Shown here piece by piece: positions 19,570 through 60,226 of a stretch of 64,000 bases of DNA. This stretch comes from Candidatus Zhuqueibacter pondensis (GTDB taxonomy: Bacteria > Zhuqueibacterota > Zhuqueibacteria > Zhuqueibacterales > Zhuqueibacteraceae): contig JAPDQK010000031.1 of assembly GCA_034505955.1 (NCBI GenBank), positions 2,320 to 66,319 of the forward strand, written 5' to 3'. Each line of letters begins with the position of its first letter. Positions within the stretch are counted from its first letter, which is position 1. The translations under genes were made by a program, and so were the position numbers. The notes under the pieces were generated by a model. The model worked only from the letters and a program-made list of their open reading frames with translations, was not told where the DNA came from and did not search any database.

Positions 19570-21888
19570 TTATGAATCAATTTCAAAGACCTTGCCATCC
19601 GGTGCACGCATGAACAAAACCGGCGCGGCCCAGTCTTGATGATCCAGGCCGGTCTTCGTCATGATGTAATGACGTGCTTCCGCGACGGCGGCATCAATGG
19701 AATTGCTTCTGAAGAGTGTCGGATAAAACACTTTGGAAAACCAAAGAGCAGATACATCCAGAATTTTATGCTGCATGGCAACGACCGCGGGCACACCGAC
19801 TTTCACAAGATTTTGTGCGATGCCGGTAAAAGCATTGGTGCTCGAGGCCGCGGCTGTTTCACAGCTGTTCAGAACCACGAGGTTAACGGAACGCTCTTGC
19901 AGCATGATCGCGAGGGTCTCCGCATCCACCTGATTACGTTCTTTCGTTTCAGATTCCAGAAGCAGAAAAGCCCTGCTGGTTTCAACATCAAATTCGCCGT
20001 GGCCGATGAAATGCAAAACATGTGGATGATGTTTCAATTCCTCCGCCAATTTCTCCGGGGTGGCATTTTCACAAAATCTCAAACGAATATCCCCGGCCCA
20101 GCGGTACGGGCGGAGTGATTTCTTGATTATTTTCTTTTCCCGTTCGACATCCAACGGCGGCAAATCCAAAGGCGCCGCAATGACCACCAATATTTTCAGG
20201 GGAATGCGGAATCGGCGTTTGGGAATGGGTTGTTCGACTTTCAAATAGCGTGTCAGGGAGATGCGCTTGTGAAATGCCATGAAACCCGGCGGCAACTCGG
20301 CACTGCGCAGAAGTTCCCAGGGCAGACAAATCAATTCCGCCGGATCTATTCTCAATTGAAGACGCAGGATTTTCTCTTCGTGCTTGGCGTCCTGGATGCT
20401 CGCCTTCAGAATATTGTAAACCTTCTCGTGAAAAAGGGCATTAAAGAGTTTTGTACCCATCCATTCGAGCTCGTCACGGCTCGCGCGCAAGTCTCGGACT
20501 TTGCGGAGCGTTTCCAGGAAATTTTCCTCCTCCAGGAATGATTGAAAAGTTAAATTGCCCTCCTCTTCGCCGACCGAAGATTCGAAAACATGGATCGGAT
20601 AAATTCCGTCTTGACTTTCCAAAATGCCGACACCCAAATTCTTGTAATTCGGCTGCGGTGCCGTCATCATACGATAATATTTTGCGCGCACGACCAACAT
20701 GCTGACATTGAACGCGGAAAGGGGCACGACCAACCCCAGCCATTGACGATTCAAATTCAACAACAGAAAAATGAGCAAAATAAACAACAGGCTGCCGGTG
20801 ATAAAGATCCATCGGGTTTTGCGCCATTTTTTGGCCAAACGCGGCGTGACAAACAACAACCAGATCAAACCAAGGAAAACCAGCAAAGCACTGTAGAAGG
20901 CCGGATCTGAAAGAACGCGGGCCTCAACCGGGCGATTGAGCAAAAGCTGGCTGACGAGCGAGGCGAGAATCGCCCAACGCGGATAAGGTCCGACAGGACA
21001 TTGCACCGGGGTCTCAGCCGAGGGATTGACGATCAGGACAATTTTATCGCGATAGTGGTGGGAGTTGGATTGAAAATATTGGGTCGTATCCTTCCAGGGA
21101 TAGTGATAGTAAAACGGCTGGAATTCTTCAACGGGTATGAAATTCACCAGCAATTGCCCGTCGCCGTCCAAATTTTGCTCGATCATGCGAAACAGGCTGT
21201 CCGGTGGCTTGAAATAGTGTTGCGCAATTTCAACCGGAAGAGACGCATAACATTTCCGGTTGCCTTGAAAGGTCAGGACCGGAGGAAAATGATGGTATTC
21301 CGAGATCAGCGAATTGATATACCCGACATGCTGCGTCACGAGAAAAAGACTGTCATAAGGCAGATCAACCCCTCGATCGGCAATATTCATGGGAAGGAGA
21401 TTACGACAGGCGGCCTCCGGAAGCGCCAGCCGTGCGAAGTGCTCGAGTTTCCTCATGATGGCAGGTGTCATCTCGTGAGGCGAGGGGCTCCAATCCCCCG
21501 CGAAGTCGATGGACAAGATGACTTCAGGACATTCGGCCACACTTCGTGCGAGCGCTTGATCTCCTTGTCGATCATCCTCATGCTCGCCAACGAAACGGAT
21601 GTCGAAGGCAATCCATTTCGCGCCGGCGTGGTGGAGCTGGCGGATCATTCTGGCATAGTCCGATCGGCGAAGGCGCTCATGCGGATCATCGCAGTCAAGT
21701 ATGACAAGATCAGGGTGAGGACGAAGGGTCGGATGGAAAAAGATGTCATAGAACGCCATGTCGATGCTTTTGGTCAGGGTGCGGGTTGGGGACAGCCATT
21801 TCACAAAGACAGCAATGACCAACGTTGCCGCCAGGCTGCATGCAAACCCGATCATTATAAGCTGCAATTTTTTGCTGATCGGTAACAC
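19570..21888 (-). CDS. CHASE2-like membrane sensor fused to a CHAT (caspase-like) protease domain
   Basis: 772 aa. One N-terminal TM helix, a ~300-aa extracytoplasmic region (DLVILDCDD...WIAFDIRF, a divergent CHASE2 signature), then three TM helices (res ~330-400). Cytoplasmic CHAT domain with His (HVLHFIGHGEF) and Cys (VVLNSCETAAAS) dyad. GTG start with AAGGAG RBS directly after the upstream stop. Confidence 0.8.
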   Translation of the reverse strand: MLPISKKLQLIMIGFACSLAATLVIAVFVKWLSPTRTLTKSIDMAFYDIFFHPTLRPHPDLVILDCDDPHERLRRSDYARMIRQLHHAGAKWIAFDIRFVGEHEDDRQGDQALARSVAECPEVILSIDFAGDWSPSPHEMTPAIMRKLEHFARLALPEAACRNLLPMNIADRGVDLPYDSLFLVTQHVGYINSLISEYHHFPPVLTFQGNRKCYASLPVEIAQHYFKPPDSLFRMIEQNLDGDGQLLVNFIPVEEFQPFYYHYPWKDTTQYFQSNSHHYRDKIVLIVNPSAETPVQCPVGPYPRWAILASLVSQLLLNRPVEARVLSDPAFYSALLVFLGLIWLLFVTPRLAKKWRKTRWIFITGSLLFILLIFLLLNLNRQWLGLVVPLSAFNVSMLVVRAKYYRMMTAPQPNYKNLGVGILESQDGIYPIHVFESSVGEEEGNLTFQSFLEEENFLETLRKVRDLRASRDELEWMGTKLFNALFHEKVYNILKASIQDAKHEEKILRLQLRIDPAELICLPWELLRSAELPPGFMAFHKRISLTRYLKVEQPIPKRRFRIPLKILVVIAAPLDLPPLDVEREKKIIKKSLRPYRWAGDIRLRFCENATPEKLAEELKHHPHVLHFIGHGEFDVETSRAFLLLESETKERNQVDAETLAIMLQERSVNLVVLNSCETAAASSTNAFTGIAQNLVKVGVPAVVAMQHKILDVSALWFSKVFYPTLFRSNSIDAAVAEARHYIMTKTGLDHQDWAAPVLFMRAPDGKVFEIDS

Positions 21889-47411: not shown

Positions 47412-47624
47412 ATGATCTACATTCAGATACCAGAAAAACAGGATGCCAAAGGACTCTATGTGCTGATGACCAATGGCACTGTAAAATGCTTGCCGGACAA
47501 CGTTTACATTATCAACAAGGATCAGCTCAAACTGCTTGATAAACATAAGATTCGTTATAAACGGCTCAAGCCAGGGGATGTGAAGCTTACTGAGCCAAAG
47601 GCCTATGGCAATGAGGAAATATGA
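47412..47624 (+). CDS. Small hypothetical protein (70 aa), first gene of an overlapping pair
   Basis: ATG start in an AT-rich region. Lys-rich. Overlaps the next ORF by 14-20 nt. Confidence 0.5.
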   Translation: MIYIQIPEKQDAKGLYVLMTNGTVKCLPDNVYIINKDQLKLLDKHKIRYKRLKPGDVKLTEPKAYGNEEI

Positions 47625-47925
47625 GGTTTATCTGCCCATCAAGTACAATGATGGGACAGACATTGAGCCGGAAAAATTTCGTCAAGTTAAAGTTGAGCTT
47701 TCGGCGATATTTGGTGGTCTCACTATGAGCCCCGTGGCTGCACCTTTTGAGGGGATATGGATTCATCAAGGAGTTGAATATCGGGATATGGTCATCAAGC
47801 TGGAGATTATCACTTCTGATGATGAAAAAATTGAAAAATTTTTCAGAGATTACAAGGAAATACTCAAAGAGGTTTTTCAGCAAAAAGAAATTTTAATAAC
47901 CATTCAGGAAGTACGAACTCTTTAA
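47605..47925 (+). CDS. Small hypothetical protein (104-106 aa), second gene of an overlapping pair
   Basis: MRKYEVYLPIKYNDGTDIEPEKF...FGGLT... looks like a compact alpha/beta domain. I recall similar unannotated proteins but cannot name a family. Confidence 0.55.
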   Translation: MAMRKYEVYLPIKYNDGTDIEPEKFRQVKVELSAIFGGLTMSPVAAPFEGIWIHQGVEYRDMVIKLEIITSDDEKIEKFFRDYKEILKEVFQQKEILITIQEVRTL

Positions 47926-49489: not shown

Positions 49490-51175
49490 ATGAACCCTGC
49501 CAGCACAAATTTTTCCAGTCCTGATCCGGTTCACAGGTTTCGTGATTTGTCGTGCCGGATTTTGTATTGCGCGAATCACGGCTTTTTGCGCACCGACTTC
49601 CTGCGGGAAGTTTTAAAGCTGCTTCTGGATTTCTCCGGTGCTGATGCGGTGTTGTTGCATTTGAAGGAAAACAGCAAGTATTTTCTTGGCAAGTGCACAC
49701 GCCCAGAGTCAACTTTCAGCATCGAAATCGCACCGTGTGCCAACGCTGAAATCATTCCGGCCTCGGCAAATGATTCCGGGATGCAACGTTTGCGCCGAGA
49801 GGTTGCTGCAGGTCAATTTGATCCGGCCTCACCTTTTTTCACTTCCAAAGGCAGTTTTTGGACTGGCGACGCGGCAAGCGCCCTGCACACAGACAACGAC
49901 AGTCATCATCGATCGCTTGCCCTGATTCCGCTCATAACCAATGACGGAAAAAACGAAAGAATCGGATTGCTGGAATTGCGGAGCGCGCACCAAAACTTCT
50001 TTTCCAAAAGGGAAATTGAATTTTATGAAGGCATCGCTCAAATTCTCAGCGTGGCTCTGGCGCACCGGCGTGCACAAGTGAATTTGCGCGAGCGCGTCAA
50101 GGAGCTGACCTGCCTTTATGAAATCGCGCAGGTGGTCGAGCGACCCGGAGTGGAAATGGAGGAAATGCTGCAAAGCATTGTGGAGCTGCTTCCGCCGGCG
50201 TGGTTATATCCCGAGATCGCCTGTGCCAGGATCATCGTCGATGGTCGCGCATACTACACAACAGGATTTGAAGAGGTTTGGCACAAACAAACTGCGGACA
50301 TCATTGTGAATGGCGAGCGGCGCGGCGAAGTGGCTGTGGTTTATGTGGAACACAAACCGGAGCAGGACGAAGGGCCATTTCTCAAGGAGGAGCGCAATTT
50401 GATCGAGGCGGTGGCGAGGGAGTTGGCACTCCTGATAGAACGAAAGAAAGCCGAGGATGATAAAGTCCGGTTGCAAGAACAGCTCAGACATGCCGATCGG
50501 CTGGCAACCATCGGGCAGCTTTCTGCCGGCGTGGCGCATGAGCTAAACGAGCCGCTGGGAAGTATTTTGGGGTTCGCGCAATTGGCAAAAAAGTGTCCCG
50601 ATCTGCCCAAGCAGGCCGAACAGGACATCGAAAAAATCGTGCATGCTTCCCTCTATGCGCGGGAGATCATCCGCAAGCTCATGCTTTTTGCCCGCCAAAT
50701 GCCGCAGCAGAGGAGCCGTGTCAATTTGAATCAGTTGGTCATCGAAGCTCTTTCTTTTTTTGAATCGCGTTTCGCGAAGGAGGGAATCACGCTCGTGCGC
50801 GCGCTGGCGCCGGATCTTCCGGTGATCACTGCCGATCCTTCACAGTTGACCCAGGTTCTGGTCAATTTGGTGGTCAATGCCATTCAGGCGATGCCTCAAG
50901 GCGGCACGCTCACCGTCGGCACATGTTTTGACGAAGTGCATGTCATATTATTTGTGGCAGACACGGGCATCGGCATGAGCGAAGAAATCAGGAAGCAAAT
51001 CTTTGTGCCTTTTTTCACAACCAAGGAAGTGGGGCAAGGAACGGGTTTGGGCTTGTCCGTTGTTCACGGCATTGTGACTGCACATGGCGGTACGATCACA
51101 GTTGAGAGCGAAGTCGGTCGAGGCTCGCGATTCGAAATTCGACTACCGGTAACTTTATCAAGTGGCGCAAAATGA
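49490..51175 (+). CDS. Cytoplasmic GAF-domain sensor histidine kinase
   Basis: H-box AGVAHELNEPLGSI, N/G boxes (VNLVVNAIQAM, DTGIGM, GTGLGLSVV), two GAF-like regions upstream, no TM helix. Start set to the ATG at 49490. Confidence 0.8.
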   Translation: MNPASTNFSSPDPVHRFRDLSCRILYCANHGFLRTDFLREVLKLLLDFSGADAVLLHLKENSKYFLGKCTRPESTFSIEIAPCANAEIIPASANDSGMQRLRREVAAGQFDPASPFFTSKGSFWTGDAASALHTDNDSHHRSLALIPLITNDGKNERIGLLELRSAHQNFFSKREIEFYEGIAQILSVALAHRRAQVNLRERVKELTCLYEIAQVVERPGVEMEEMLQSIVELLPPAWLYPEIACARIIVDGRAYYTTGFEEVWHKQTADIIVNGERRGEVAVVYVEHKPEQDEGPFLKEERNLIEAVARELALLIERKKAEDDKVRLQEQLRHADRLATIGQLSAGVAHELNEPLGSILGFAQLAKKCPDLPKQAEQDIEKIVHASLYAREIIRKLMLFARQMPQQRSRVNLNQLVIEALSFFESRFAKEGITLVRALAPDLPVITADPSQLTQVLVNLVVNAIQAMPQGGTLTVGTCFDEVHVILFVADTGIGMSEEIRKQIFVPFFTTKEVGQGTGLGLSVVHGIVTAHGGTITVESEVGRGSRFEIRLPVTLSSGAK

Positions 51176-52518
51176 TGTCTCCGGCAAAAAGAGAGTGTAT
51201 TCTGGTGGTTGATGACGCCAGGGATACGTTGGAAGTGCTGCAAAGAAATTTGACGGCGCAGCGATACCAGGTCTTTACGGCCACGAGTGTCGTTGAGGCC
51301 ATCAATATACTTGATACGGCCGACGTTGACCTGGTCATCACCGACCTGAAAATGCCCGAGATCAGCGGCATGGACCTGATCCGTCATGTTCGTGAAAATT
51401 TCAAAGATACCGAAGTGATCATGATGACCGGTTACCCTTCGATTGAGGGGGCGGTCACGGCGGTCAAAAGCGGCGCCGAAGAGTATTTGACAAAACCGTT
51501 TACAGACGAAGAGTTGTTTGCGGCGGTACGGCGAACGCTCGACAAGCTGCTCATCCGTCGTGCCACGCAAGTGCAATCATATCAGCCGCCGGCAACGCCG
51601 CACGGCTTGCTTGGTGAATCGGAAAGCATGCGCCGGGTCTTGCGCGCCATTACCAAGGCTGCATCCACTTCCGCCACCATTCTCATTACCGGAGAGAGCG
51701 GCACGGGCAAGGAGCTGGTCGCGCGCTCGATTCATTACAGCAGCCCGCGTGCCGCAGCGCCGTTTGTGCCCATCAACTGCGGCGGCATTCCGGAACAACT
51801 GCTGGAAAGCGAACTTTTCGGGCACGTCAAGGGCGCTTTCACCGGTGCAGTGGAAACGCGCGCTGGTTTCTTTCAAACCGCCGATGGGGGCACAATTTTT
51901 CTGGATGAAATCAGCGAAACTTCGCTCGCAATGCAGGTCAAACTGCTCCGCGTTCTGCAGGACAAGGAGGTTTGCATGGTTGGTTCGACGCGCGCCCGAA
52001 AAGTGGATGTGCGAATCATTGCCGCCACCAACAAGGATTTGCTTGCGTTGGTGAAGAAAAACGCCTTCCGTGACGATTTGTTCTATCGTCTCAACGTCAT
52101 TACGATCGATTTGCCGCCTCTGCGCGAACGCAACCATGACATTCTGCTGTTGACGCAGCACTTCGTCAAAGTCTATGCCGAGGAGGCAGGCAAGCCGGTG
52201 CCGCGCTTTTCGGATCAGGTTCTCCAGATCTTCAAAAATTACGATTGGCCGGGAAACGTGCGAGAGCTGCAAAATGTGATTCAACGTCTGGTGGTGATGA
52301 CGGAAAGCGATGTCATTGATGTTCCCGACCTGCCGGCACTCATGCGTTTCTCAGCGCAACGGGGAACGGGTCTCCAACGAACCCTGGCTGAAATGGAAGC
52401 CGAACATATCCGCAACGTTCTCGCCAGTGTGAATGGCAACAAGACGCGGGCTGCGGAGATTCTCGGAATCGATCGCAAAACCTTGCGTGAAAAATTGAGG
52501 CATTACTCGATAAGTTAG
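51172..52518 (+). CDS. Sigma-54-dependent response regulator (NtrC family)
   Basis: Receiver (LVITDLKMPEISG), AAA+ domain with Walker A GESGTGKE and the GAFTGA sigma-54 contact loop, C-terminal Fis-type HTH (NKTRAAEILGIDRKTLREKL). ATGA overlap with the kinase gene. Confidence 0.92.
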   Translation: MMSPAKRECILVVDDARDTLEVLQRNLTAQRYQVFTATSVVEAINILDTADVDLVITDLKMPEISGMDLIRHVRENFKDTEVIMMTGYPSIEGAVTAVKSGAEEYLTKPFTDEELFAAVRRTLDKLLIRRATQVQSYQPPATPHGLLGESESMRRVLRAITKAASTSATILITGESGTGKELVARSIHYSSPRAAAPFVPINCGGIPEQLLESELFGHVKGAFTGAVETRAGFFQTADGGTIFLDEISETSLAMQVKLLRVLQDKEVCMVGSTRARKVDVRIIAATNKDLLALVKKNAFRDDLFYRLNVITIDLPPLRERNHDILLLTQHFVKVYAEEAGKPVPRFSDQVLQIFKNYDWPGNVRELQNVIQRLVVMTESDVIDVPDLPALMRFSAQRGTGLQRTLAEMEAEHIRNVLASVNGNKTRAAEILGIDRKTLREKLRHYSIS

Positions 52519-52581
52519 ATGCCCGCTCAAAGCTGCAGCGGCATGCGCTTTTGATTACAATTTGCGTCGAGGGAGGTCATC

Positions 52582-53700
52582 ATGCCTGTACAGGTAGGGC
52601 AAATCGTCGACCGCAAAGAGTTGAAGGCATTCATTTATTTGCCGGCGGCGATTCATCGTAACCATGCACTGTGGGCACCACCGATTTATCAGGAGGAGTG
52701 GCGTTTTTTCAATCCGCAGAAAAATCGGGCATTTTCATATTGTGATGCGACGCTCGCATTGGCACGACGCGATCACGAGCCTGTCGGGCGCATTATGGGC
52801 ATCATCAACAGGCGACACAATGAAATCACGAACCAAAAAACTGCGCGATTTGGCTACCTGGAATGCCTGGAAGATCAAGAAATCATCCACGCCCTGCTCA
52901 ATTATGTAGAAGCCTGGGCGCGGGACAAGGGGATGAACAAGATTGTCGGACCGATGGGTTTCACCGATCAAGATCCGGAAGGTTTCATGATCGAGGGCTT
53001 TGAGCATGGCCCAACGATCGCCACCTACTACAACACCCCGTCCTTCATTCACCTGCTTGAAGCCGAGGATTATACCAAGGAAGTGGATTATGTGGTGTAC
53101 AAAATAAAAGTGCCTGACCGCATTCCGGAGTTCTATGAAAAAATCTACAGAAGAATATCGAAGCAGCAGGAATTTACCCTGGTCGAGTTCAGCAGGCGGA
53201 AAGAGCTGAAAGCGTACATTCGTCCGGTGCTCGGCCTCTTGAACGAAACCTTTGAGCACATTTACGGCTTCGCCCCACTCGATGAAAAGGAGATGGAAAA
53301 CCTCGCCAGCCAGTATTTGCCAGTATTGGATCCGCGATTTGTAAAAGTCGTAAAAAGAGATCACCAGGTCATTGCATTTATTATTGGCATCCCGAATATG
53401 ATTGATGGGATCCGCAAAGCGAAGGGTCGCCTTTTTCCTTTTGGCATATTTCAGATCATCCGTGCCACAAAAAAGACCAAGCAACTGGATTTGCTGCTCG
53501 GTGGCATTAAACAGGAATACCGCGGGCGCGGCTTGGATGTATTGATGGGGCGCGCCATGCTGAAGTCGGCCATGCAAGCCGGATTCGAATACATGGACAG
53601 CCATCACGAGTTGGAAACCAATACGAGCATCCGCGCCGAAATGGAGCGTGCCGGCGGGCAGGTTTATAAACGCTACCGCATTTTTCAGAAATCACTCTGA
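52582..53700 (+). CDS. GNAT-like N-acyltransferase family protein (long ~370-aa form)
   Basis: The layout (conserved N-terminal ...LWAPPIY.E....FNP.KN..F, then VGRI..I... and GF.D.DPEGF.IEGF) matches a widespread long GNAT-like family. No catalytic residues could be verified. Confidence 0.5.
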   Translation: MPVQVGQIVDRKELKAFIYLPAAIHRNHALWAPPIYQEEWRFFNPQKNRAFSYCDATLALARRDHEPVGRIMGIINRRHNEITNQKTARFGYLECLEDQEIIHALLNYVEAWARDKGMNKIVGPMGFTDQDPEGFMIEGFEHGPTIATYYNTPSFIHLLEAEDYTKEVDYVVYKIKVPDRIPEFYEKIYRRISKQQEFTLVEFSRRKELKAYIRPVLGLLNETFEHIYGFAPLDEKEMENLASQYLPVLDPRFVKVVKRDHQVIAFIIGIPNMIDGIRKAKGRLFPFGIFQIIRATKKTKQLDLLLGGIKQEYRGRGLDVLMGRAMLKSAMQAGFEYMDSHHELETNTSIRAEMERAGGQVYKRYRIFQKSL

Positions 53701-54024
53701 ATCGCTTCTGTAACGTGCAATACTGCCGCAATCAAATCTTCGGACACTTGTGTCACAGATTTGTGCTGACATATATTTGCAATGATCTGCCAAAAGCTGT
53801 GTCCTAAAATTTTTTTAGTTTTATAGTTTTTCCAGGGTAATGCTCAGTACTCACGTTCTGGGGAATTCCGCCCCGCTGGTTCAAACCTCCCCAACATTTT
53901 TGCTCAATTTCCCCCAAAGAGCTTGTCATCAGCTTTTAATTTGGTGAATTTTTCTCTCTGATTTTTTGTGACTTATCGCGGTCGGATCCTCTCTTTATCG
54001 ATTGACAGCTGCTCGAGGTACCCG

Positions 54025-54040
54025 TGGCACGGGAATCGCG
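54025..54040 (+). promoter_or_regulatory. Sigma-54 (-24/-12) promoter
   Basis: TGGCACgggaaTCGCg has GG (54026-27) and GC (54038-39) separated by exactly 10 nt. It matches TGGCAC-N5-TTGC except for one base. It lies about 40 nt upstream of the ATG at 54080 and downstream of an NtrC-family activator gene. Confidence 0.6.
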
Positions 54041-54079
54041 TTGTTCTCCCAGTGGTATGACCGAAAAATGGAGGTCATT

Positions 54080-54457
54080 ATGCATACCACCCAACCGATG
54101 AGCAGGAGCAGTGAGGCAATATCGGCACGACAAAAACCGCCGACAAAAACCTCAGAGCCTTCTGTGGTTTCATCGAAAGAGAAATATCCTGGCATCTGCA
54201 AAATATGCCAATCTGCTCCAGGCTGTATTTTTAGAGAACAGTCCACGGGGCCAATCTTGCAATGCGATGAGTTCCGTGGATACACCGTCATTTCGGAGAA
54301 ATCGACTGTCAAAACTTCTTTGCCGGCAATTGAAGTCGTCAGCGCAGCAAAGGCTGCGGGTACCTACTTGGGTCTGTGCAGTAATTGCAAAGTTCGTGAA
54401 AATTGCATCTATCCCAAACCCGAAGGGGGTGTTTGGCATTGCGAGATGTATGAATGA
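54080..54457 (+). CDS. Cys-rich small protein with an internally duplicated 4-Cys module
   Basis: 125 aa from the ATG at 54080, with a GGAGG RBS 5 nt upstream. Two repeats: YPGICKICQSAPGCIF...GPILQCDEF and YLGLCSNCKVRENCIY...GGVWHCEMYE. The ORF-track start at 54002 would overlap the promoter. Confidence 0.55.
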   Translation: MHTTQPMSRSSEAISARQKPPTKTSEPSVVSSKEKYPGICKICQSAPGCIFREQSTGPILQCDEFRGYTVISEKSTVKTSLPAIEVVSAAKAAGTYLGLCSNCKVRENCIYPKPEGGVWHCEMYE

Positions 54458-54493
54458 ATCATCCGTGCATGATGTTTGCGTGGAAAAGACAAG

Positions 54494-55342
54494 ATGAATA
54501 CAGAAACCATCCTGAACGTCGTCGGAAAACATCGCGGGGAGCGCGGTGCGCTGATCGCGATCCTTCAAGACATCCAGTCGAAATATGGCTATCTTCCCGC
54601 GGAGGCGCTAAAGATTGTCGCCAGCGAAACCGGTCACACGATGGTCGACATTTATGGGATTGCGACTTTTTATCGCTCCTTCCGCTTGAAACCCCGGGGT
54701 AAACACATGGTTTCCGTTTGCCTCGGCACTGCCTGCCATGTGCGCGGCGGACCGATCATCGCTGAGGAATTTGAGCGGCAATTGGACACCCGGGTTGGCG
54801 GAACGACGACAGACAAGGAGTTTTCCTTGGAGACCGTCAACTGTTTGGGTGCCTGCGCGTTGGGCCCGATTGTTGTCATTGATGGCCATTATTTCTCGAA
54901 TGTCGATACCGCCAAAGTCAAGCAGCTTGTAAGAAAGGCACGGGCCGGACTGGATAAAGTCGGGATGAAAGGCGAACAAACAATTTTTCCTGTTGAAGTG
55001 AGCTGCCCGCGTTGCAATCACAGTTTGATGAATGCAAAGCACCTGCTCGACGGTTACCCTGTGATCCATGTGACGATATCATTCGGGCATCAACACGGGT
55101 GGTTGAGGTTGTCCAGTCTGTACGGTAGTTACACCATCGAATCCGAACATGAAATCCCAATGGATGCGGTAGTCAATATCTTCTGTCCTCATTGCCATGC
55201 CGAGCTGGTTGGCGCCTCGAATTGCACCGAGTGCGAGGCGCCGATGGTGCCGATGATTGTTCGCGGCGGCGGCATCGTGCAGATTTGCTCACGCCGCGGC
55301 TGCAAATCACACATGCTGGATTTGAATGGCGTGAATTTGTGA
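54494..55342 (+). CDS. NuoE/HydC-like [2Fe-2S] thioredoxin-like subunit with C-terminal 4x CxxC extension
   Basis: NuoE core (LPAEALKIVA...IATFYRSFRLKP.GKH...VCLGTACHVRG...VNCLGACALGP). About 115 extra C-terminal residues carry CPRC, CPHC, CTEC and CSRRGC. Confidence 0.85.
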   Translation: MNTETILNVVGKHRGERGALIAILQDIQSKYGYLPAEALKIVASETGHTMVDIYGIATFYRSFRLKPRGKHMVSVCLGTACHVRGGPIIAEEFERQLDTRVGGTTTDKEFSLETVNCLGACALGPIVVIDGHYFSNVDTAKVKQLVRKARAGLDKVGMKGEQTIFPVEVSCPRCNHSLMNAKHLLDGYPVIHVTISFGHQHGWLRLSSLYGSYTIESEHEIPMDAVVNIFCPHCHAELVGASNCTECEAPMVPMIVRGGGIVQICSRRGCKSHMLDLNGVNL

Positions 55343-55447
55343 CGGTCGCGAGGTTTAATTCCTTTGATCACGCAAATTTCAACATTCATTGATGATATTG
55401 GACCTTCATATATTGTCTGAGACTGTTTGACCAATCCGCGTTCAAGC

Positions 55448-57310
55448 ATGCACAAATTAAAATCACTGGAGGAGTTCAACGCACTCCAAAAACGGCTGAT
55501 CGCCGAACAAGACTCCAGCGTGCCGACCATCATCATTTCGGCGGGCACATGCGGACAAGCGAGCGGCGCCAATGATCTCATTCGCCTCACCAAACGTGAG
55601 CTGCTCCTCAAAGAGCTGACGGATAAAGTCCACTTGCGCATCACCGGCTGCCATGGATTCTGCGAGATGGAGCCCTCGGTGCTCGTCGAGCCGCAGCGAA
55701 TCTTTTATCCCAATGTTGTTCCCCGCGACATGGCACGAATTGTCAATGCCGTCGCTCGCGGTGAGGTGCTGGAAGATTTGCTGTTCAAAGATGAAAAAAC
55801 CGGAGACCGCATCAAATGTCAGGACGATTTGCCGTTCTTTCGGAAGCAAGTTCGGACCATTCTCGCGCGCAACGAGAAAATCGATCCCATCCGCATTTAC
55901 AATTACATTGAAAATGGCGGCTACGCGGCCATGTGCAAAACGGTTCAAACGGGTAATCCCGAATGGGTGATCAATGAGGTGAAGGCCTCGGGATTGCGTG
56001 GGCGTGGTGGCGCCGGATTTCCCACCGGCTTGAAGTGGGAATTGCTGGCCAGGCAACGAAGTGGTAATGGCAAATTTCTCGTGTGTAACGCGGATGAGGG
56101 CGATCCCGGTGCGTACATGGACCGCAGCGTGCTCGAAGGCAATCCACACAGCATCATCGAGGGCATGCTTATCGGTGCCTACGCCACGGGCGCGACCGAA
56201 GGTGTGATTTACGTCCGCACTGAATATCCACTCGCCATTAAACATTTGATCATTGCATTACGGCAGGCGCACGAGTTGGGCCTGCTCGGCGAAAATATTC
56301 TGGGAACGGGCTTTTCATTTGATATTCATCTCGTGCGCGGCGCCGGCGCTTTCGTCTGCGGTGAAGAAACCGCGCTGATGCGCTCGGTTGAAGGTAAAAT
56401 CGGCGAGCCGCGCCAGCGGCCACCGTATCCGGTGCAGCGAGGGATCGAGGGCAAGCCGACAGCGATCAATAATGTTGAAACCTGGGCCAACATTCCCATC
56501 ATCATCGAGCGCGGCGGTGCGGAATTCGCCAAGGTTGGAACGCCAAACAATTCCGGCACCAAAATTTTCAGCCTCGTCGGCAAAGTCAAATACACCGGCC
56601 TGGTCGAAGTGCCGATGGGTATGACCATCGGGGAGATCGTCAATGATATTGGCGGGGGGCCGATCAACAACGCGAAAATCAAGGCGGTACAGACCGGCGG
56701 ACCTTCCGGCGGCTGCATTCCCACCGAACGCTTTGATCTGCCCATTGATTACGACAGCTTATCGCAAGCCGGCTCGATCATGGGTTCCGGCGGCATGATC
56801 GTGATGGATGATCACACCTGCATGGTCGATGTCGCGAAGTATTTTATGAACTTCTTGAAGGATGAGTCGTGCGGCAAGTGTTTCACCTGCCGCAAAGGCA
56901 CGCAGCGCATGCATGAGATTCTCGATGATATTTCGAAAGGGAAAGGCACGCTGGCGCAGCTGCAACTGCTCGAAGAGCTTGCGCTGGTCGTGAAAGACAC
57001 CACCATGTGCGGTTTGGGGCAGACGGCATCGAACCCGGTGCTGTCCACGCTGCGTTATTTCCGCGAGGAATATCTGGACCACATTCAGCACAAGCACTGC
57101 CCCGCCGGTGTATGCCGCGAGCTGATCACCTATTTTATTACCGAAAACTGTACCGGCTGTCAAATCTGCTTCCGCGGTTGCCCGGCGCATGCCATCCTCG
57201 GGAAAAAACAGGAACGTCACGTGATCGACACCAGCAAATGCATCAAATGCGGAAATTGCAAAACCGTCTGCAAGTTCGATGCGGTTGAGACGAGAGCGCA
57301 GTTTACTTAG
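55448..57310 (+). CDS. NuoF/HydB-like NAD(H)-binding FMN/Fe-S subunit with extra N-terminal [2Fe-2S] and C-terminal 2x[4Fe-4S] domains
   Basis: GRGGAGFPTGLKW (FMN/NADH site) and SCGKCFTCRKG (N3-type cluster). N-terminal Trx-like region with CGQ...CHGFC. C-terminal CTGCQICFRGCP and CIKCGNCKTVC ferredoxin motifs. Confidence 0.9.
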   Translation: MHKLKSLEEFNALQKRLIAEQDSSVPTIIISAGTCGQASGANDLIRLTKRELLLKELTDKVHLRITGCHGFCEMEPSVLVEPQRIFYPNVVPRDMARIVNAVARGEVLEDLLFKDEKTGDRIKCQDDLPFFRKQVRTILARNEKIDPIRIYNYIENGGYAAMCKTVQTGNPEWVINEVKASGLRGRGGAGFPTGLKWELLARQRSGNGKFLVCNADEGDPGAYMDRSVLEGNPHSIIEGMLIGAYATGATEGVIYVRTEYPLAIKHLIIALRQAHELGLLGENILGTGFSFDIHLVRGAGAFVCGEETALMRSVEGKIGEPRQRPPYPVQRGIEGKPTAINNVETWANIPIIIERGGAEFAKVGTPNNSGTKIFSLVGKVKYTGLVEVPMGMTIGEIVNDIGGGPINNAKIKAVQTGGPSGGCIPTERFDLPIDYDSLSQAGSIMGSGGMIVMDDHTCMVDVAKYFMNFLKDESCGKCFTCRKGTQRMHEILDDISKGKGTLAQLQLLEELALVVKDTTMCGLGQTASNPVLSTLRYFREEYLDHIQHKHCPAGVCRELITYFITENCTGCQICFRGCPAHAILGKKQERHVIDTSKCIKCGNCKTVCKFDAVETRAQFT

Positions 57311-57550
57311 GTTTACTTATACAGTCAAAGTTAGAAAAAACTCTGAGAGTTTTATACTCCCCAACTGATAGATGAACCCGACTGTTTAAAACCATCCATT
57401 GGGTTCATCCATCAATTGAAAACGCTTTACACGCTAATTTTTTTCTTTTTGAGCATAGATTTCAAAAGACAAAATAATTTTTGACAAAATGATTTAAAAT
57501 TTTTTTGTCTTTGAAATTGATAACGGTTATCCCACGCTGGATATATTGCA

Positions 57551-58222
57551 ATGATCACTCTTGTCATCAATGGTTTGCCTGTTAGGGTCGAAGAAGGCAC
57601 AACTCTGCTCGAAGCGGCAAAATTCATCGGCTTCCCGATTCCGACGCTGTGCCACCTGGAAGGTCTTTCGCCATACGGCGCCTGCCGGCTATGCGTGGTG
57701 GAAATCGGCGAAGGCCCGAAAGCGAAATTGGTTTCTTCATGCACCTATCCCGCTGAAGAAGGGTTGAAAGTACGAACGGCGTCAGCAAGAGTCGTGCGTG
57801 CGCGCAAAATGATTCTCGAGTTGCTGCTGGCCTCGTGCCCACAGTCGAAAACGATTCAGGACCTCGCCGCAGCCCATGAAGTGCGTCAACAGCGCTTTCG
57901 GCAGGAATATGAAGACTGCATTCTCTGCGGCTTGTGTGTGCGCATGTGCGCCGCGCAGATGATGGCCAATGCCATCGGCTTCCGTGGTCGCGGCGAGCAT
58001 CGCAGCATCGGCACCCCGTTCGACATCAAATCCGAGCGTTGCCGGTTGTGCGGCGGCTGCATGTATATTTGTCCGGCTTGCCAACTCCGCTGTACCTACA
58101 CCGAGCCGGAAAAGGCCATTTGTGGAGCCTGCGCCAATCTCAGCCCACCGTGTCTTCTGAAAAAGCAATTTGATGATATGATGTGTTACATGGAACCGTG
58201 CGTGGCTTGTGAGATAAAGTAG
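57551..58222 (+). CDS. NuoG/HydA N-terminal-like [2Fe-2S] plus [4Fe-4S] ferredoxin protein, no catalytic domain
   Basis: MITLVINGLPVRVEEGTTLLEAA...PTLCHLEGLSPYGACRLCVVEI (2Fe-2S). CILCGLCVRMC and CRLCGGCMYICPAC (4Fe-4S). Only 223 aa. Confidence 0.8.
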   Translation: MITLVINGLPVRVEEGTTLLEAAKFIGFPIPTLCHLEGLSPYGACRLCVVEIGEGPKAKLVSSCTYPAEEGLKVRTASARVVRARKMILELLLASCPQSKTIQDLAAAHEVRQQRFRQEYEDCILCGLCVRMCAAQMMANAIGFRGRGEHRSIGTPFDIKSERCRLCGGCMYICPACQLRCTYTEPEKAICGACANLSPPCLLKKQFDDMMCYMEPCVACEIK

Positions 58223-58591
58223 CAGTCGCAGCAGTAGTAGCAATAGCAGTCATAGATAAATATTGTCTCCATGTCATTAAGTTAAGTCGAAACCTATTTG
58301 TGAAGTCCCGAAAGGGAAGAATGAGAACGGCTTGTCTACATCATTGCGATCGTTCTTTTTCAACCGTCTCTTACGGGACTCGCGAGGCATTTACGGATAA
58401 TGCTTTCCCAACAAAAAATTGTTGGGCTATTATCGTTTGTCCCCTACAGGCGCAGCTTTCGGGACACTTATGGGCTTAATTTAATGGCATGGGATAATAT
58501 CTGCGTGCTACTGCCACTGCCGATTGCTTCTGATACTTTTGCAAAAACATCCGTGTTTGAATAGTCAGATTTTAATTTTAAGGAGATTCCC

Positions 58592-60175
58592 ATGTCTCTC
58601 TCCAGAATAAATGCCTCCGCGGCAACGTTGACAAAAAATCGAACCGAAGGCTCGATCGTGCCGGCCTCCGGCATGTGTGTCACCTGTGTGGACGGCTGCA
58701 TCGGCATGTGCGAGATCGGCAAATCCGCCTATCGCGGGCACGAGGTGATATACCCGCAGCCGTTTGGCGTGATCACGACGGCCGCCGAGAAGAACTATCC
58801 GATCGATTACTCGCATTTCAACATCATGGGTACCGTTGTGGGTGCGTTTGGCGTCGAAGCGGACAGCGACAAGGCGATCTTTCCAGCCGTCAATCTTGAA
58901 GTCGCTTTCGGTCATGACCACGGCCTGAAGTTTCGTTATCCGTGGATCATCCCCGGCATCGGCTCGACGGATATTGCCAAGAACAACTGGGAAGGCCTGG
59001 CCATCGGCTCGGCACTTGCTGGCACCGGCTTGACCATTGGAGAGAATGTCGTGGGCATGGATCCCAATGCGGTCATCAAGAATGGACGCGTAGTCGATAC
59101 GGTGGATTTGAAGCGCCGCGTGCGACTTTACACGGATTATCAACGTGACGGTTATGGCGCCATCATTGTACAGTCAAACATCGAGGACACTCGTCTCGGC
59201 GTGCACGAGTATGCGATCGACAAGCTCGGCGTCATGTGTGTTGAGCTGAAGTGGGGACAGGGTGCAAAAAATATCGGTGGCGAGGTCAAGATCCGAGATT
59301 TGAGAAAAGCACAAATGCTGTACGAGCGCGGCTACATCGTGCTGCCGAATCCCACCGATCCTCATGTCATCAAAGCCTTCGAGCGTGGAGCATTCAAAGA
59401 ATTCGAGCGGCACTCGCGCGTCGGCATGGTTACCGAAGAGTCGTTTGCCAAACGAGTGGAAGAACTGCGTCGAGCCGGCGCCAAGTATATTTTCCTCAAG
59501 ACCGGCGCGTATCGTCCTGCGGATTTGGCACGCGCCGTCGTGTTTGCCTCCAAATACAAATTGGATCTGCTCACGGTTGACGGGGCAGGTGGCGGTACCG
59601 GTATGAGTCCGTGGCGGATGATGAACGAATGGGGCGTGCCGCCGGTGGAATTGCATGCGCTGCTGTATCACTATGCCAAACGGTTGGCGCAGAAAAAAAT
59701 GTATTTGCCGGCCCTGGCGGTTGCCGGTGGATTCACGTTCGAGGATCAAATTTTCAAAGGCCTCGCCTTGGGCGCGCCGTTCGTGAAGCTCGTGGGCATG
59801 GCACGCTCGCCGATTGCCGCGGCCATGGTCGGCAAAACCATCGGCCGCGCCATCGAAGAGAATCAGCTTCCCGTGTACATTGAGCGCTTCGGCCATACGA
59901 AGGATGAAATCTTTGTGACCGCCAGTGTGCTGCGCAAGGAATTGGGCGATGAGGATTTTGAGAAAATCCCGGCTGGTGCACTCGGGCTTTACACTTATTA
60001 CGAGCGCCTCGCCCAGGGTTTGCGGCAACTCATGGCGGGCAGTCGTAAATTTTCGTTGGCATATATCACCCGCGATGATATTGCGGCGCTCACTCGTGAA
60101 GCTGCGGAGATTAGCGGCATCAAATATGTGATGGAAGTCGATCAGGAAGAAGTCGAGAAAATTCTCAATTCTTGA
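58592..60175 (+). CDS. Stand-alone GltB-like (glutamate synthase FMN-domain family) protein with N-terminal Cys cluster
   Basis: 527 aa. N-terminal CVTCVDGCIGMCEIG. TIM-barrel FMN-domain motifs (VELKWGQGAKNIGGEVK, TVDGAGGGTGMSP). No amidotransferase or GXGXG domain. Confidence 0.8.
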   Translation: MSLSRINASAATLTKNRTEGSIVPASGMCVTCVDGCIGMCEIGKSAYRGHEVIYPQPFGVITTAAEKNYPIDYSHFNIMGTVVGAFGVEADSDKAIFPAVNLEVAFGHDHGLKFRYPWIIPGIGSTDIAKNNWEGLAIGSALAGTGLTIGENVVGMDPNAVIKNGRVVDTVDLKRRVRLYTDYQRDGYGAIIVQSNIEDTRLGVHEYAIDKLGVMCVELKWGQGAKNIGGEVKIRDLRKAQMLYERGYIVLPNPTDPHVIKAFERGAFKEFERHSRVGMVTEESFAKRVEELRRAGAKYIFLKTGAYRPADLARAVVFASKYKLDLLTVDGAGGGTGMSPWRMMNEWGVPPVELHALLYHYAKRLAQKKMYLPALAVAGGFTFEDQIFKGLALGAPFVKLVGMARSPIAAAMVGKTIGRAIEENQLPVYIERFGHTKDEIFVTASVLRKELGDEDFEKIPAGALGLYTYYERLAQGLRQLMAGSRKFSLAYITRDDIAALTREAAEISGIKYVMEVDQEEVEKILNS

Positions 60176-60194
60176 AATAGATCATTTTTTTGAT

Positions 60195-60226
60195 GAATTC
60201 GGCGTGCCACGGCATACGCCGAATTT
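60195..60226 (+). terminator. Rho-independent terminator after the GltB-like gene
   Basis: aattcggcgt / acgccgaatt 10-bp stem followed by tttt. Confidence 0.6.

Follow-up and report, generated by a model that had tools for sequence, protein, structure and literature searches.

The closest described relatives of the operon analysed here lie among Bfu-type enzymes and glutamate synthases. WorABCSL, a tungsten aldehyde oxidoreductase-Bfu, is a Type 2 Bfu enzyme (PDB 9MQX; PMC12318220). BfuB subunits are defined by the InterPro domain set Nuo51, SLBB, NADH_4Fe-4S and a C-terminal 2x[4Fe-4S] ferredoxin domain, and they have a "B2"/zinc site (Cys438, His525, Cys531 and Cys536 in A. mobile numbering) whose His is missing in non-bifurcating homologues (PMC9304861). 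Among glutamate synthases, the putative F420-dependent enzymes FGltS(I/II) of methanogens rest on genomics only and remain uncharacterised (PMC3448663). In the operon reported here, an NADH–ferredoxin electron module of the HydABC/Bfu type is combined with a flavoprotein resembling glutamate synthase. A literature search found no published description of it.

The window, that is, the whole 64,000-nt stretch of DNA that was analysed, derives from a MAG of candidate division KSB1 and holds a GAF kinase, a sigma-54 activator and a -24/-12 promoter, followed by five genes; everything in the gene inventory of the first-pass annotation is present, with only small shifts in coordinates. The order 8-Cys protein, NuoE-like, NuoF-like, BfuA-like and GltB-like, all on one strand, recurs in every informative locus among 83 related loci, meaning those with sufficient flanking or upstream DNA. 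Linkage of the GltB-like gene to the NuoEF-like genes, which the annotation had advised checking in other genomes, is universal in these loci. Neighbouring cassette genes overlap or stand ~20 nt apart in most related loci, and no other conserved candidate catalytic gene was found there. The GltB-like gene is present in at least 592 species-level genomes, a lower bound, from about ten phyla. Between phyla, the GltB-like and BfuA-like proteins are ~85% identical, and third codon positions of their genes are 44% identical, near saturation. The operon is real, very widespread and extremely conserved.

Our preferred reading, on which our own belief is evenly divided, is that these genes encode a sigma-54-switched, multi-subunit Bfu-type Fe-S flavoenzyme in which a GltB-like third-substrate module would convert 2-oxoglutarate and ammonia to glutamate. 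That the proteins form one complex is inferred, as are the substrate, the direction of the reaction and any bifurcation or confurcation.

At the upstream end, a cytoplasmic sensor histidine kinase (49490..51175, + strand; Pfam GAF, HisKA and HATPase_c) is followed by an NtrC-family sigma-54 activator (51172..52518, +; Response_reg, Sigma54_activat at 238 bits and a Fis-type HTH_8) with a GAFTGA motif in its AAA+ domain. Both had been recognised from the outset, and both are borne out by Pfam and the sequence. In 45 of the 83 related loci an activator homologue, ~70% identical, lies within the 2.5 kb preceding NuoE, and wherever the regulator is retained a kinase homologue (47-68% identity) adjoins it, upstream of the operon. 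The sigma-54-type -24/-12 promoter TGGCACgggaaTCGC (54025..54039, +) was assigned from its sequence and from equivalents in related loci. A site does exist where a near-consensus promoter had been claimed, but it carries two mismatches against TGGCAC-N5-TTGCW. A window scan for one-mismatch -24/-12 sites returned 5 against 3.4 expected, the operon promoter not among them, and taken alone this promoter is no better than chance in the window. What supports it is comparison: in 31 of 56 related loci the operon is preceded by a site that matches at 9 or more of 10 positions, versus 0 of 112 coding control windows.

A conserved upstream element, CTGGGGAATTCCGCCCCGCTGGTTCAAACCTCCCCA (53858..53893, no strand assigned), was found as a motif in related intergenic regions. 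It is composed of an inverted repeat GGGG-N7-CCCC, GGTTCAAA and a third half-site TCCCC. The inverted repeat appears in 18 of 42 intergenic regions versus no controls, and 27 related loci, spread over several phyla, have the full CTGGGGAATTCCGCCCCGCTGGTTCAAACCTCCCCA-type motif ahead of the operon. In those of them with a detected -24/-12 site, the motif stands 125-184 nt upstream of that site; in the window it stands 147 nt upstream. We regard the element as a candidate activator binding site (enhancer), with binding inferred; a tRNA at 53858-53893 was ruled out. Separately, the repeat TGTCA-N11-TGACA that had been suggested as enhancer-like is indeed found at 53751-53771, but just 1 of 45 related intergenic regions has a repeat of the kind, and we rejected it as not conserved. 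To judge from these sequence features, a sigma-54/bEBP regulon would be complete here, with its GAFTGA activator, -24/-12 promoter and upstream element; activator binding and sigma-54 dependence are inferred.

First behind the promoter is the expected small 8-Cys protein (125 aa; 54080..54457, +), which most likely starts at ATG 54080, with GGAGG 5 nt before it. It is built of two CxxCx5Cx11-12C repeats, and every Cys is 98-100% conserved in 48 homologues despite an overall identity of 27-46%. It has no match in Pfam, NCBIfam or the PDB, and is a candidate Fe-S or zinc subunit or dedicated electron carrier. The BfuC/NuoE-like [2Fe-2S] subunit that follows (54494..55342, +) is confirmed as NuoE-like by a 2Fe-2S_thioredx domain (156 bits), and its cluster residues C76, C81, C117 and C121 are conserved in 51 homologues. 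Absent from the first-pass annotation was its C-terminal tail of ~125 aa, which is zinc-ribbon-like and has 8 invariant Cys (C171, C174, C231, C234, C244, C247, C265 and C270, conserved in 51 homologues) and no match in the PDB. As a predicted NuoE-like [2Fe-2S] subunit encoded beside BfuB, this protein qualifies as BfuC.

The BfuB/NuoF-like NADH-FMN subunit, here in a short form, spans 55427..57310 (+). Its probable true start is ATG 55448, since homologue alignments begin at residue 8. Pfam assigns to the 627-aa protein the FMN/NADH (Nuo51), SLBB and NADH_4Fe-4S domains and a C-terminal 2x[4Fe-4S] ferredoxin domain, and by this set it appears to be a BfuB. Its top PDB matches are all BfuB, led by A. 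mobile NiFe-HydB (7t2r_B, 731 bits); scores are 620-731 bits against solved bifurcating BfuB versus at most 368 bits against the non-bifurcating Nqo1/FdsB. By score it is thus placed, as had been anticipated, with Bfu/HydB proteins. No grouping of the NuoEF pair was seen with enzymes that have their catalytic subunit encoded at another locus. Of the HydB architecture earlier ascribed to it, the C-terminal 2x[4Fe-4S] domain holds, but the N-terminal [2Fe-2S] domain (B5) is present with only three of the four canonical Cys, both in the window and in most relatives. In the alignment Ser38 stands opposite the A. mobile residue C11, and the counterpart of C16 is displaced to C42; C42, C75 and C79 (plus H76) are the sole conserved residues of this kind in the region, and a canonical C-x4-C occurs in about 13-15 of 65 relatives.

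Most relatives have a long form of this subunit. Of 65 complete BfuB genes, 44 include a fused, full-length homologue of GltD (30-34% identical to the E. coli protein), which takes the place of the missing C-terminal ferredoxin-binding domain; this GltD-like half best matches NfnA and StnC. The earlier statement that there is no GltD partner is therefore true of the window's short form, a minority type, and a GltD-type FAD/2x[4Fe-4S] NAD(P)H-oxidising partner is absent from the window, but the statement does not extend to the relatives. The loss of the ferredoxin-binding domain in two thirds of them, together with the non-canonical B5 [2Fe-2S] site, could point to a plain NADH-dependent reductase (NADH/NADPH-dependent in the long form) that does not bifurcate, the 2x[4Fe-4S] domain and the 8-Cys protein serving as wiring or being remnants. 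NADH reduction of 2-oxoglutarate plus ammonium is exergonic under standard conditions, so such an enzyme would have no need of coupling. We consider this unlikely, although it is a serious contender. The His/Cys site that distinguishes BfuB (PMC9304861) is invariant in both short and long forms (C465, H552, C558 and C563, equivalent to C438, H525, C531 and C536, in 65 clade members), as are the short form's C-terminal Cys, and so elaborate an enzyme is hard to explain if a simple GDH suffices.

The next gene (57551..58222, +; Fer2_4 and Fer4_7) encodes a minimal BfuA of 223 aa with sites for one [2Fe-2S] and two [4Fe-4S] clusters and a C-terminal tail bearing 8 more conserved Cys. All of its Cys are conserved in 77 homologues, which are 79-89% identical. 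The His-ligated cluster motif H-x3-C-x2-C-x5-C and a catalytic domain are both absent from it. This agrees with the initial description of a NuoG/HydA-like Fe-S protein lacking a catalytic domain, and its best PDB match is itself a minimal BfuA, WorA (9mqx_A, 247 aa, E = 1.7e-34). With the A3 and A5 clusters apparently missing and the catalytic subunit separate, it would be a Type 2 BfuA.

As that catalytic subunit we propose the GltB-like FMN TIM-barrel protein (527 aa; 58592..60175, +). The suggestion that it is the catalytic partner of a Bfu-type module is supported by the linkage and the Bfu-type scores; the reaction is unproven. Its identity as a GltB FMN-domain homologue with its own Cys cluster rests on PF01645, profile alignment and AF2/Foldseek, and on an N-terminal CxxCxxxCxxxC motif conserved in the family. 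The protein is 83-87% identical across phyla. Its PF01645 match is weak (55 bits, residues 279-400), and single-sequence comparison with GltS covers the FMN-phosphate region only. An hhalign comparison with GltS FMN domains gave a probability of 97.5% over 320 columns at ~25% identity, pairing GE151 with SGE, Q223-G-A-K226 with QGAK, R246 with the arginine of IAxxR, and DGAGGGTGMSP with DGGTGAxP. E151, Q223, K226 and R246 are invariant in 56 sequences. We take the 2-oxoglutarate site of GltS to comprise Glu903, Gln969, Lys972 and Arg992 (numbering of the Azospirillum/Synechocystis enzymes), and on that assumption the alignment would retain the site as E151, Q223, K226 and R246. The equivalent of Gln978 is replaced by an invariant Glu (Glu231). 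Foldseek with the AF2 model (pLDDT 74) gives FMN-barrel matches, with alpha-hydroxyacid oxidases (lactate/glycolate oxidases, flavocytochrome b2) and not GltS in top rank. No Cys is present in GMARSPIAAAMVGK, the region aligned with the [3Fe-4S] motif C-x5-C-x4-C after the barrel, and amidotransferase (Ntn) and GXGXG domains are absent from the protein, from the window operon and from the related loci inspected. Homology to GltS is established, but as far as alignments can tell the similarity is remote. One relative (P0244) has an FrhB/FdhB-like domain fused to it.

The cassette has nitrogen-related genomic surroundings, among which we count the conserved sigma-54 sites. Five loci have GDH beside the cassette, and in a sixth the GltB-like gene is followed by one resembling GS. 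In a related clade, a divergent Bfu plus GltB-like cluster lies beside GDH under NrpR-like control; NrpR senses 2-oxoglutarate. In a sister clade the GltB-like gene stands alone, without the other cassette genes; an NrpR-like gene adjoins it in 6 of 7 loci, and GS, GDH, PII, Amt or flavodoxin genes are found nearby. Independent support for a link to ammonium and glutamate comes from the presumed site residues, the GltD fusion and the nitrogen-gene neighbours, the reaction itself being unproven.

The same complex could, however, use a substrate other than 2-oxoglutarate and ammonia, such as a different 2-oxo or imino acid, a glutamate with an N-substituent, or some unrelated small molecule that the GAF kinase senses. 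The NCBI family name "FMN-binding glutamate synthase family protein" presumably also covers the N-methylglutamate synthase subunit MgsC. The same name appears in connection with a paper on N-methylglutamate production (PMC6237917). The remoteness of the GltS similarity, the invariant Glu in place of Gln978 and the structural matches to lactate/glycolate oxidases and flavocytochrome b2 leave room for such a substrate, as does the complete split GltS plus GDH already encoded in some genomes with family members, beside which a further glutamate-forming enzyme looks redundant. We think it unlikely, without being able to set it aside, in view of the retained Glu, Gln, Lys and Arg of the presumed 2-oxoglutarate site, the full GltD that is the fused partner in most relatives, and the recurrence of GDH, GS, PII and an NrpR-like regulator as neighbours, rather than genes of some other pathway.

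Two long gaps between the window genes, already remarked on in the first-pass annotation, are real. The A+T-rich 240-nt spacer between the NuoF-like and BfuA-like genes (57311..57550, +) contains hairpins at 57362-57418 and 57465-57512 (fold z = -4.1), and no canonical terminator was found in it; the same junction measures -4 to about +40 nt in related loci. The 369-nt spacer between the BfuA-like and GltB-like genes (58223..58591, +) has a very stable sense-strand RNA fold (-131.3 kcal/mol, z = -7.0, versus -104.4 kcal/mol, z = -3.9, for the antisense strand), no match in Rfam, and no second copy in the window or related loci. Both spacers are peculiar to the window and not to the system. They, and the stand-alone sister clade, found once beside a flavodoxin gene and thus suggesting that the fold can use a soluble carrier, would suit two separate co-transcribed enzymes, an NADH:ferredoxin oxidoreductase (NuoE, NuoF and BfuA) and a ferredoxin-dependent GltB-like enzyme, but this is very unlikely given the invariant order and adjacency with frequently overlapping stop and start codons, the equal and exceptional conservation of the BfuA-like and GltB-like proteins, which fits a shared interface, and a BfuA tail with 8 conserved Cys in the position of WorA's catalytic-module adaptor.

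If the genes do encode a single glutamate-forming Bfu-type enzyme, NADH would give up its electrons to the FMN in the NuoF/BfuB-like subunit, which would act jointly with the [2Fe-2S] subunit resembling NuoE/BfuC. Electron exchange with ferredoxin would take place at the C-terminal 2x[4Fe-4S] domain of BfuB, possibly involving the 8-Cys protein; in the long form, the role of ferredoxin would fall to NAD(P)H at the fused GltD domain. Minimal BfuA would relay electrons one at a time through its clusters (one [2Fe-2S] and two [4Fe-4S]), its Cys-rich tail docking the GltB-like subunit as WorA does WorS, and the N-terminal four-Cys cluster of that subunit would hand electrons to its own FMN. There, 2-oxoglutarate and free ammonia would form 2-iminoglutarate and then glutamate, without glutamine. 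Scarce ammonium would lower the effective potential of the glutamate couple towards or below that of NADH, and co-oxidation of NADH and reduced ferredoxin could pull the amination without ATP. In potential, the glutamate couple lies well above the third substrates of known Bfu enzymes; we counted this against the proposal, and the energetic logic would therefore be unlike theirs. Also counted against it were the lack of biochemical or expression data, the remoteness of the GltS similarity, the Foldseek ranking, the apparent redundancy beside GltS and GDH in some genomes, the absence of the [3Fe-4S] motif and of the amidotransferase and GXGXG domains, the Gln978-to-Glu replacement, the three-Cys B5 site and the window spacers.

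The operon may be an unrecognised route from ammonium to glutamate in anaerobes. A more specific proposal, which we hold only tentatively and think rather unlikely, is ATP-independent, high-affinity ammonium assimilation in which NADH and reduced ferredoxin (or NAD(P)H at GltD in the long form) drive the amination of 2-oxoglutarate. If true, it would work at ammonium concentrations in the micromolar range, which are too low for GDH and at which GS-GOGAT consumes ATP. Glutamate would then have a third general pathway, present in at least ~600 anaerobic species, with hosts in Planctomycetota, Zixibacteria, Ignavibacteria, KSB1, WOR-3, Acidobacteriota, Thermodesulfobacteriota and others, and the enzyme would be the first Bfu enzyme with an amino-acid couple as its third substrate.

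It is useful to contrast the cassette with the systems it most resembles. FGltS(I/II), likewise uncharacterised, offer a precedent for a GltS FMN subunit served by a different electron-input module; theirs is F420-dependent and archaeal, and glutamine is assumed to be the nitrogen donor. The FrhB/FdhB-like fusion in the relative P0244 is a point of resemblance to them. With GltBD and the archaeal-type split GltS the cassette shares a homologous FMN TIM-barrel synthase domain, the GE, QGAK, R and DGGTG motifs and a nitrogen-related context, and most relatives, like the bacterial NADPH-glutamate synthase GltBD, have a GltD homologue as redox partner. It differs from them in lacking the amidotransferase, central and GXGXG domains, in having an N-terminal four-Cys motif in place of the [3Fe-4S] motif, and in that electrons would reach the GltB-like protein through the NuoEF/BfuA module. 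The NfnABC/StnABC transhydrogenases (Nfn-Bfu; PDB 9N5U, 9BOV and 8OH5) combine a BfuBC core with a GltD/NfnL-like FAD-NAD(P)H module, as does the long form here. However, their GltD-like module lies within BfuA and is itself the third-substrate site, whereas the cassette's relatives carry GltD at the BfuB C-terminus plus a further GltB-like subunit, and the window version has no GltD-like module. The nearest parallel to the predicted architecture is WorABCSL, with its BfuBC core, its small BfuA without a catalytic domain but with a Cys-rich C-terminal adaptor (WorA, 247 aa), and its separately encoded catalytic module; among solved structures the 223-aa protein matches WorA best, and the NuoF-like subunit has 9mqx_B among its top matches. 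Compared with WorABCSL, the cassette adds an 8-Cys BfuC tail and a separate 8-Cys protein, its catalytic module is an FMN/[4Fe-4S] GltB-like protein rather than a tungstopterin enzyme, and its expected third substrate would be of high rather than low potential.

The five-gene cassette encodes a predicted Bfu-type (HydABC-type electron-bifurcating) enzyme with a proposed new catalytic module, and its relatives add a new fusion of BfuB to GltD. The genes described in the first-pass annotation are all present, each on the + strand. A histidine kinase (49490–51175, GAF/HisKA/HATPase_c) and an NtrC-family activator with a GAFTGA loop (51172–52518) precede the −24/−12 element TGGCACgggaaTCGC (54025–54039). 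The cassette then encodes a small 125-aa 8-Cys protein (likeliest start ATG 54080, with GGAGG ahead of it), a NuoE-like protein (54494–55342), a NuoF-like protein (55427–57310, probable start 55448), a 223-aa BfuA-like protein with Fer2_4 plus Fer4_7 domains (57551–58222), and a 527-aa GltB-like protein with a weak PF01645 match (58592–60175), which has a 100% identical counterpart in a candidate division KSB1 MAG. That account had omitted a C-terminal tail of ∼125 aa with eight invariant Cys on the NuoE-like protein, as well as eight more conserved Cys beyond the two [4Fe-4S] motifs of the 223-aa protein. Neither the 8-Cys protein nor the NuoE tail has relatives in Pfam, NCBIfam, or the PDB. 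An ORF of 372 aa (52582–53700, + strand), matched weakly by GNAT, separates the activator gene from the conserved upstream element; none of the 83 related loci has it, and its position is held by a nitroreductase gene in L001, a locus from a complete Phycisphaerales genome. The DNA that directly follows the cassette in L001 (12935–16414) carries a phage-type integrase and an ISL3 transposase.

We propose that NADH would be oxidized at the FMN of BfuB, and that the C-terminal clusters would exchange electrons with ferredoxin. Single electrons would pass from BfuA through a four-Cys cluster to the FMN of the GltB-like subunit, which would carry out the reductive amination of 2-oxoglutarate by free ammonia. 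The standard potential of the 2-oxoglutarate plus ammonia/glutamate couple lies well above that of NADH. By a rough calculation, micromolar ammonium and a high glutamate pool would bring this couple near −0.34 V, and with a low-potential donor added, assimilation would become possible at no ATP cost. In the short form found in the window, where BfuB ends in a 2x[4Fe-4S] ferredoxin domain, this donor would be ferredoxin; in the long, GltD-fused form, it would be NAD(P)H. The mechanism is inferred, without assay data, and is consistent with control by nitrogen-type regulators.

Searching the PDB directly with the sequence of the GltB-like protein, or with a shallow profile, gave no meaningful match, and in hhalign against E. 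coli GltB alone just the FMN-phosphate region aligned, so that two archaeal-type GltS subunits had to be added. With 1111 representatives at 50% identity (E ≤ 0.001), the family is compact, and full-length relatives extend down to ∼31% identity. Its two-clade profile matched one built from the FMN domain of E. coli GltB and the FMN subunits of two archaeal-type GltS enzymes, with 97.5% probability over 320 columns, pairing GE151NV with SGEGG, VQ194 with QVASG, K220-W-G-Q223-G-A-K226 with IKxxQGAK, R246 with the Arg of IAxxR, and DGAGGGTGMSP with DGGTGAxP. We take the aligned residues to be those lining the 2-oxoglutarate site of Azospirillum and Synechocystis GltS (Glu903, Gln969, Lys972, and Arg992); spacing in the E. 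coli sequence is consistent with this numbering. At the position of Gln978 stands an invariant Glu. Instead of a [3Fe-4S] motif, the protein has a family-wide N-terminal CxxCxxxCxxxC motif, and the amidotransferase and GXGXG domains are absent from the protein. By definition, the cassette enzyme is not a glutamate synthase, although its function may resemble that of an ammonia-dependent one. An AlphaFold model from 20 close homologues was unusable (pLDDT 49). A second, using two clades, gave an FMN TIM barrel (pLDDT 74, pTM 0.80), for which Foldseek ranked lactate and glycolate oxidases and flavocytochrome b2 highest, at query-normalised TM-scores near 0.4. This confirms a generic FMN-barrel fold but not the substrate, and one rival reading is that the GltB-like subunit acts on a different one.

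The genomic context of the relatives bears on that choice. The first-pass annotation had noted the lack of a GltD partner, which is true of the short form in the window but not of the family at large. In 44 of 65 complete relatives, a full-length GltD homologue (Fer4_20 plus Pyr_redox_2) takes the place of the BfuB C-terminal ferredoxin domain, as at L002 6134–9307 and in 43 other loci; it shares 30–34% identity with E. coli GltD, and among solved structures it matches NfnA and StnC best. Therefore, most versions of the enzyme hold both redox halves of an NADPH-glutamate synthase. NrpR is a nitrogen repressor that senses 2-oxoglutarate. A divergent Bfu plus GltB-like cluster (67% identity for the GltB-like protein, 55% for NuoF, and 49% for BfuA) is without the sigma-54 system, is flanked by two NrpR-like regulator genes, and adjoins GDH. 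GDH is also the immediate neighbor of the cassette in four loci spread over different phyla and lies 3 kb off in a fifth; in a sixth, the gene after the GltB-like one is GS-like. A stand-alone sister clade (∼51% identity), which includes Spirochaeta thermophila and Thermodesulforhabdus norvegica, has an NrpR-like neighbor in six of seven loci examined and a GS, GDH, PII, Amt, split GltS, or flavodoxin gene alongside in five of those; it resembles a distinct nitrogen-regulated enzyme, as yet uncharacterised. Its regulator in loci L086–L091 combines WHD_RNase_R with NRD1_2 domains. Given the GltD fusion and the NrpR-like, GDH, GS, and PII neighbors, the family is tied to glutamate and ammonium metabolism. 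No nitrogen genes were found elsewhere in the window among ten large ORFs scanned, all within its first 28 kb.

A second rival holds that the complex is a non-bifurcating reductase. The flavin module itself has Bfu-type sequence signatures. Among solved structures in the PDB, the top nine matches to the NuoF-like protein are all BfuB subunits at 620–731 bits, among them NiFe-HydB 7t2r_B (731 bits), NfnB, HydB, WorB, and StnB, compared with at most 368 bits for the non-bifurcating Nqo1 and FdsB. A His/Cys site typical of bifurcating BfuB is missing in non-bifurcating homologues (PMC9304861); it aligns with C465, H552, C558, and C563 of the NuoF-like protein, which are invariant in 65 clade members. 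The closest solved relative of the 223-aa protein is WorA (9mqx_A, E = 1.7e-34). Thus, judged from sequence, the window system has the anatomy of a “Type 2” Bfu enzyme, with a three-Cys B5 site as its single departure. The extra N-terminal [2Fe-2S] domain ascribed to the NuoF-like protein does exist, but just three of its four canonical Cys are kept. The canonical C-x4-C persists in about 13–15 of 65 clade members; in the others, the window protein among them, position 38 is Pro or Ser and the Cys has moved to 42, giving three Cys plus His76 (residues 38–43 and 75–79 of the 55427–57310 protein, compared across loci L001–L083).

The weakest rival, that the cassette comprises two separate enzymes, meets a conserved linkage whose absence would have refuted the original proposal: across the 83 fetched loci, wherever upstream DNA sufficed to judge, the order 8-Cys, NuoE, NuoF, BfuA-like, GltB-like recurs on a single strand. 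The kinase and activator lie upstream in 45 of the 83. No other conserved genes were found near the cassette in related loci, and because nothing else nearby is conserved, the GltB-like protein is the only candidate catalytic partner. It has thousands of homologues at 84–87% identity, from WOR-3, Planctomycetota, Thermodesulfobacteriota, Eisenbacteria, Ignavibacteriae, and others, and its gene occurs in at least 592 genomes in a scan of one genome per GTDB species. Among related loci, identity to the window is 79–89% for the BfuA-like protein, 61–80% for NuoF, 53–70% for NuoE, about 70% for the activator, 47–68% for the kinase, and 27–46% for the 8-Cys protein. At third codon positions, the GltB-like and BfuA-like genes share only 44% identity with those of the window; therefore, the 85% protein identity represents old divergence under very strong purifying selection. 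Recent horizontal transfer as its source is ruled out by these positions, and is also contradicted by the far more diverged kinase and NuoE-like genes. Such constraint on the two key subunits (∼85% identity across phyla, with synonymous sites saturated) points to an important function.

Regulation is supported by comparison more than by the window. The proposed −24/−12 promoter is not significant taken alone, but 31 of 56 related loci have a site with at least 9/10 matching positions ahead of the operon, versus none of 112 coding controls. The enhancer-like repeat TGTCA-N11-TGACA, proposed alongside it, is unconserved (1 of 45 loci) and is rejected as a conserved site. A different element, cTGGGGAatTtcTCCCCag-GGTTCAAAtcTCCCCa, is conserved in 27 related loci (53858–53893 in the window) and lies 125–184 nt upstream of the promoter site where that site was detected. 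It is likely the binding site of the co-conserved activator, although binding is inferred. A tRNA-like reading of this element, which contains GGTTCAAAT, was discarded, as ARAGORN finds nothing.

Two long spacers are an oddity of the window's lineage, since related cassette genes typically overlap by 4 nt or sit ∼20 nt apart. The 369-nt spacer ahead of the GltB-like gene (58223–58591), missing in related loci, folds at −131.3 kcal/mol on the sense strand (z = −7.0) and −104.4 kcal/mol on the antisense strand (z = −3.9). The 240-nt spacer after the NuoF-like gene (57311–57550) is A+T-rich, with hairpins at 57362–57418 and 57465–57512 (z = −4.1); it might attenuate or terminate transcription, and no canonical terminator was found in it. 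Mobile repeats were rejected: the spacers contain no ORFs and recur nowhere else in the window or among the 83 loci, and neither matches an Rfam family. Elsewhere in the window, a 772-aa CHASE2 plus CHAT domain protein (19570–21888, − strand) adjoins TPR and Reg_prop/FlgD_ig proteins, several large secreted proteins bear T9SS sorting tails, and two small adjacent + strand ORFs (47412–47925; 70 and 106 aa) are bounded by the gene for threonine synthase on one side and a − strand ORF of 360 aa on the other.

The third-substrate module is what defines the classes of Bfu enzymes, and the cassette would add a new functional class; with GltD where the ferredoxin-binding domain would be, its long form would contribute a new architecture. 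The founding survey, whose tree has 57 clades, excluded metagenomic data and left 17–18 clades unassigned (PMC9304861). A GltB-type partner is mentioned neither there nor in later structural papers, full-text literature searches returned no description of a GltB/GOGAT-Bfu enzyme, and the BfuB–GltD fusion was not found in the Bfu literature examined. In MAGs, the GltB-like gene is labeled only “FMN-binding glutamate synthase family protein,” and the cassette is spread over hundreds of uncultured anaerobic lineages. If its substrate is 2-oxoglutarate plus ammonia, it would provide a redox-driven alternative to assimilation by GDH or GS-GOGAT, relevant to energy-limited sediment and subsurface microbes and to metabolic reconstructions from MAGs. 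Two systems bear comparison. In WorABCSL, WorA is likewise a small BfuA, without the A3 and A5 clusters, and its C-terminal part recruits the catalytic module. Finally, one GltB-like relative is fused to an FrhB/FdhB-like domain, which recalls the predicted F420-dependent glutamate synthases (PMC3448663).
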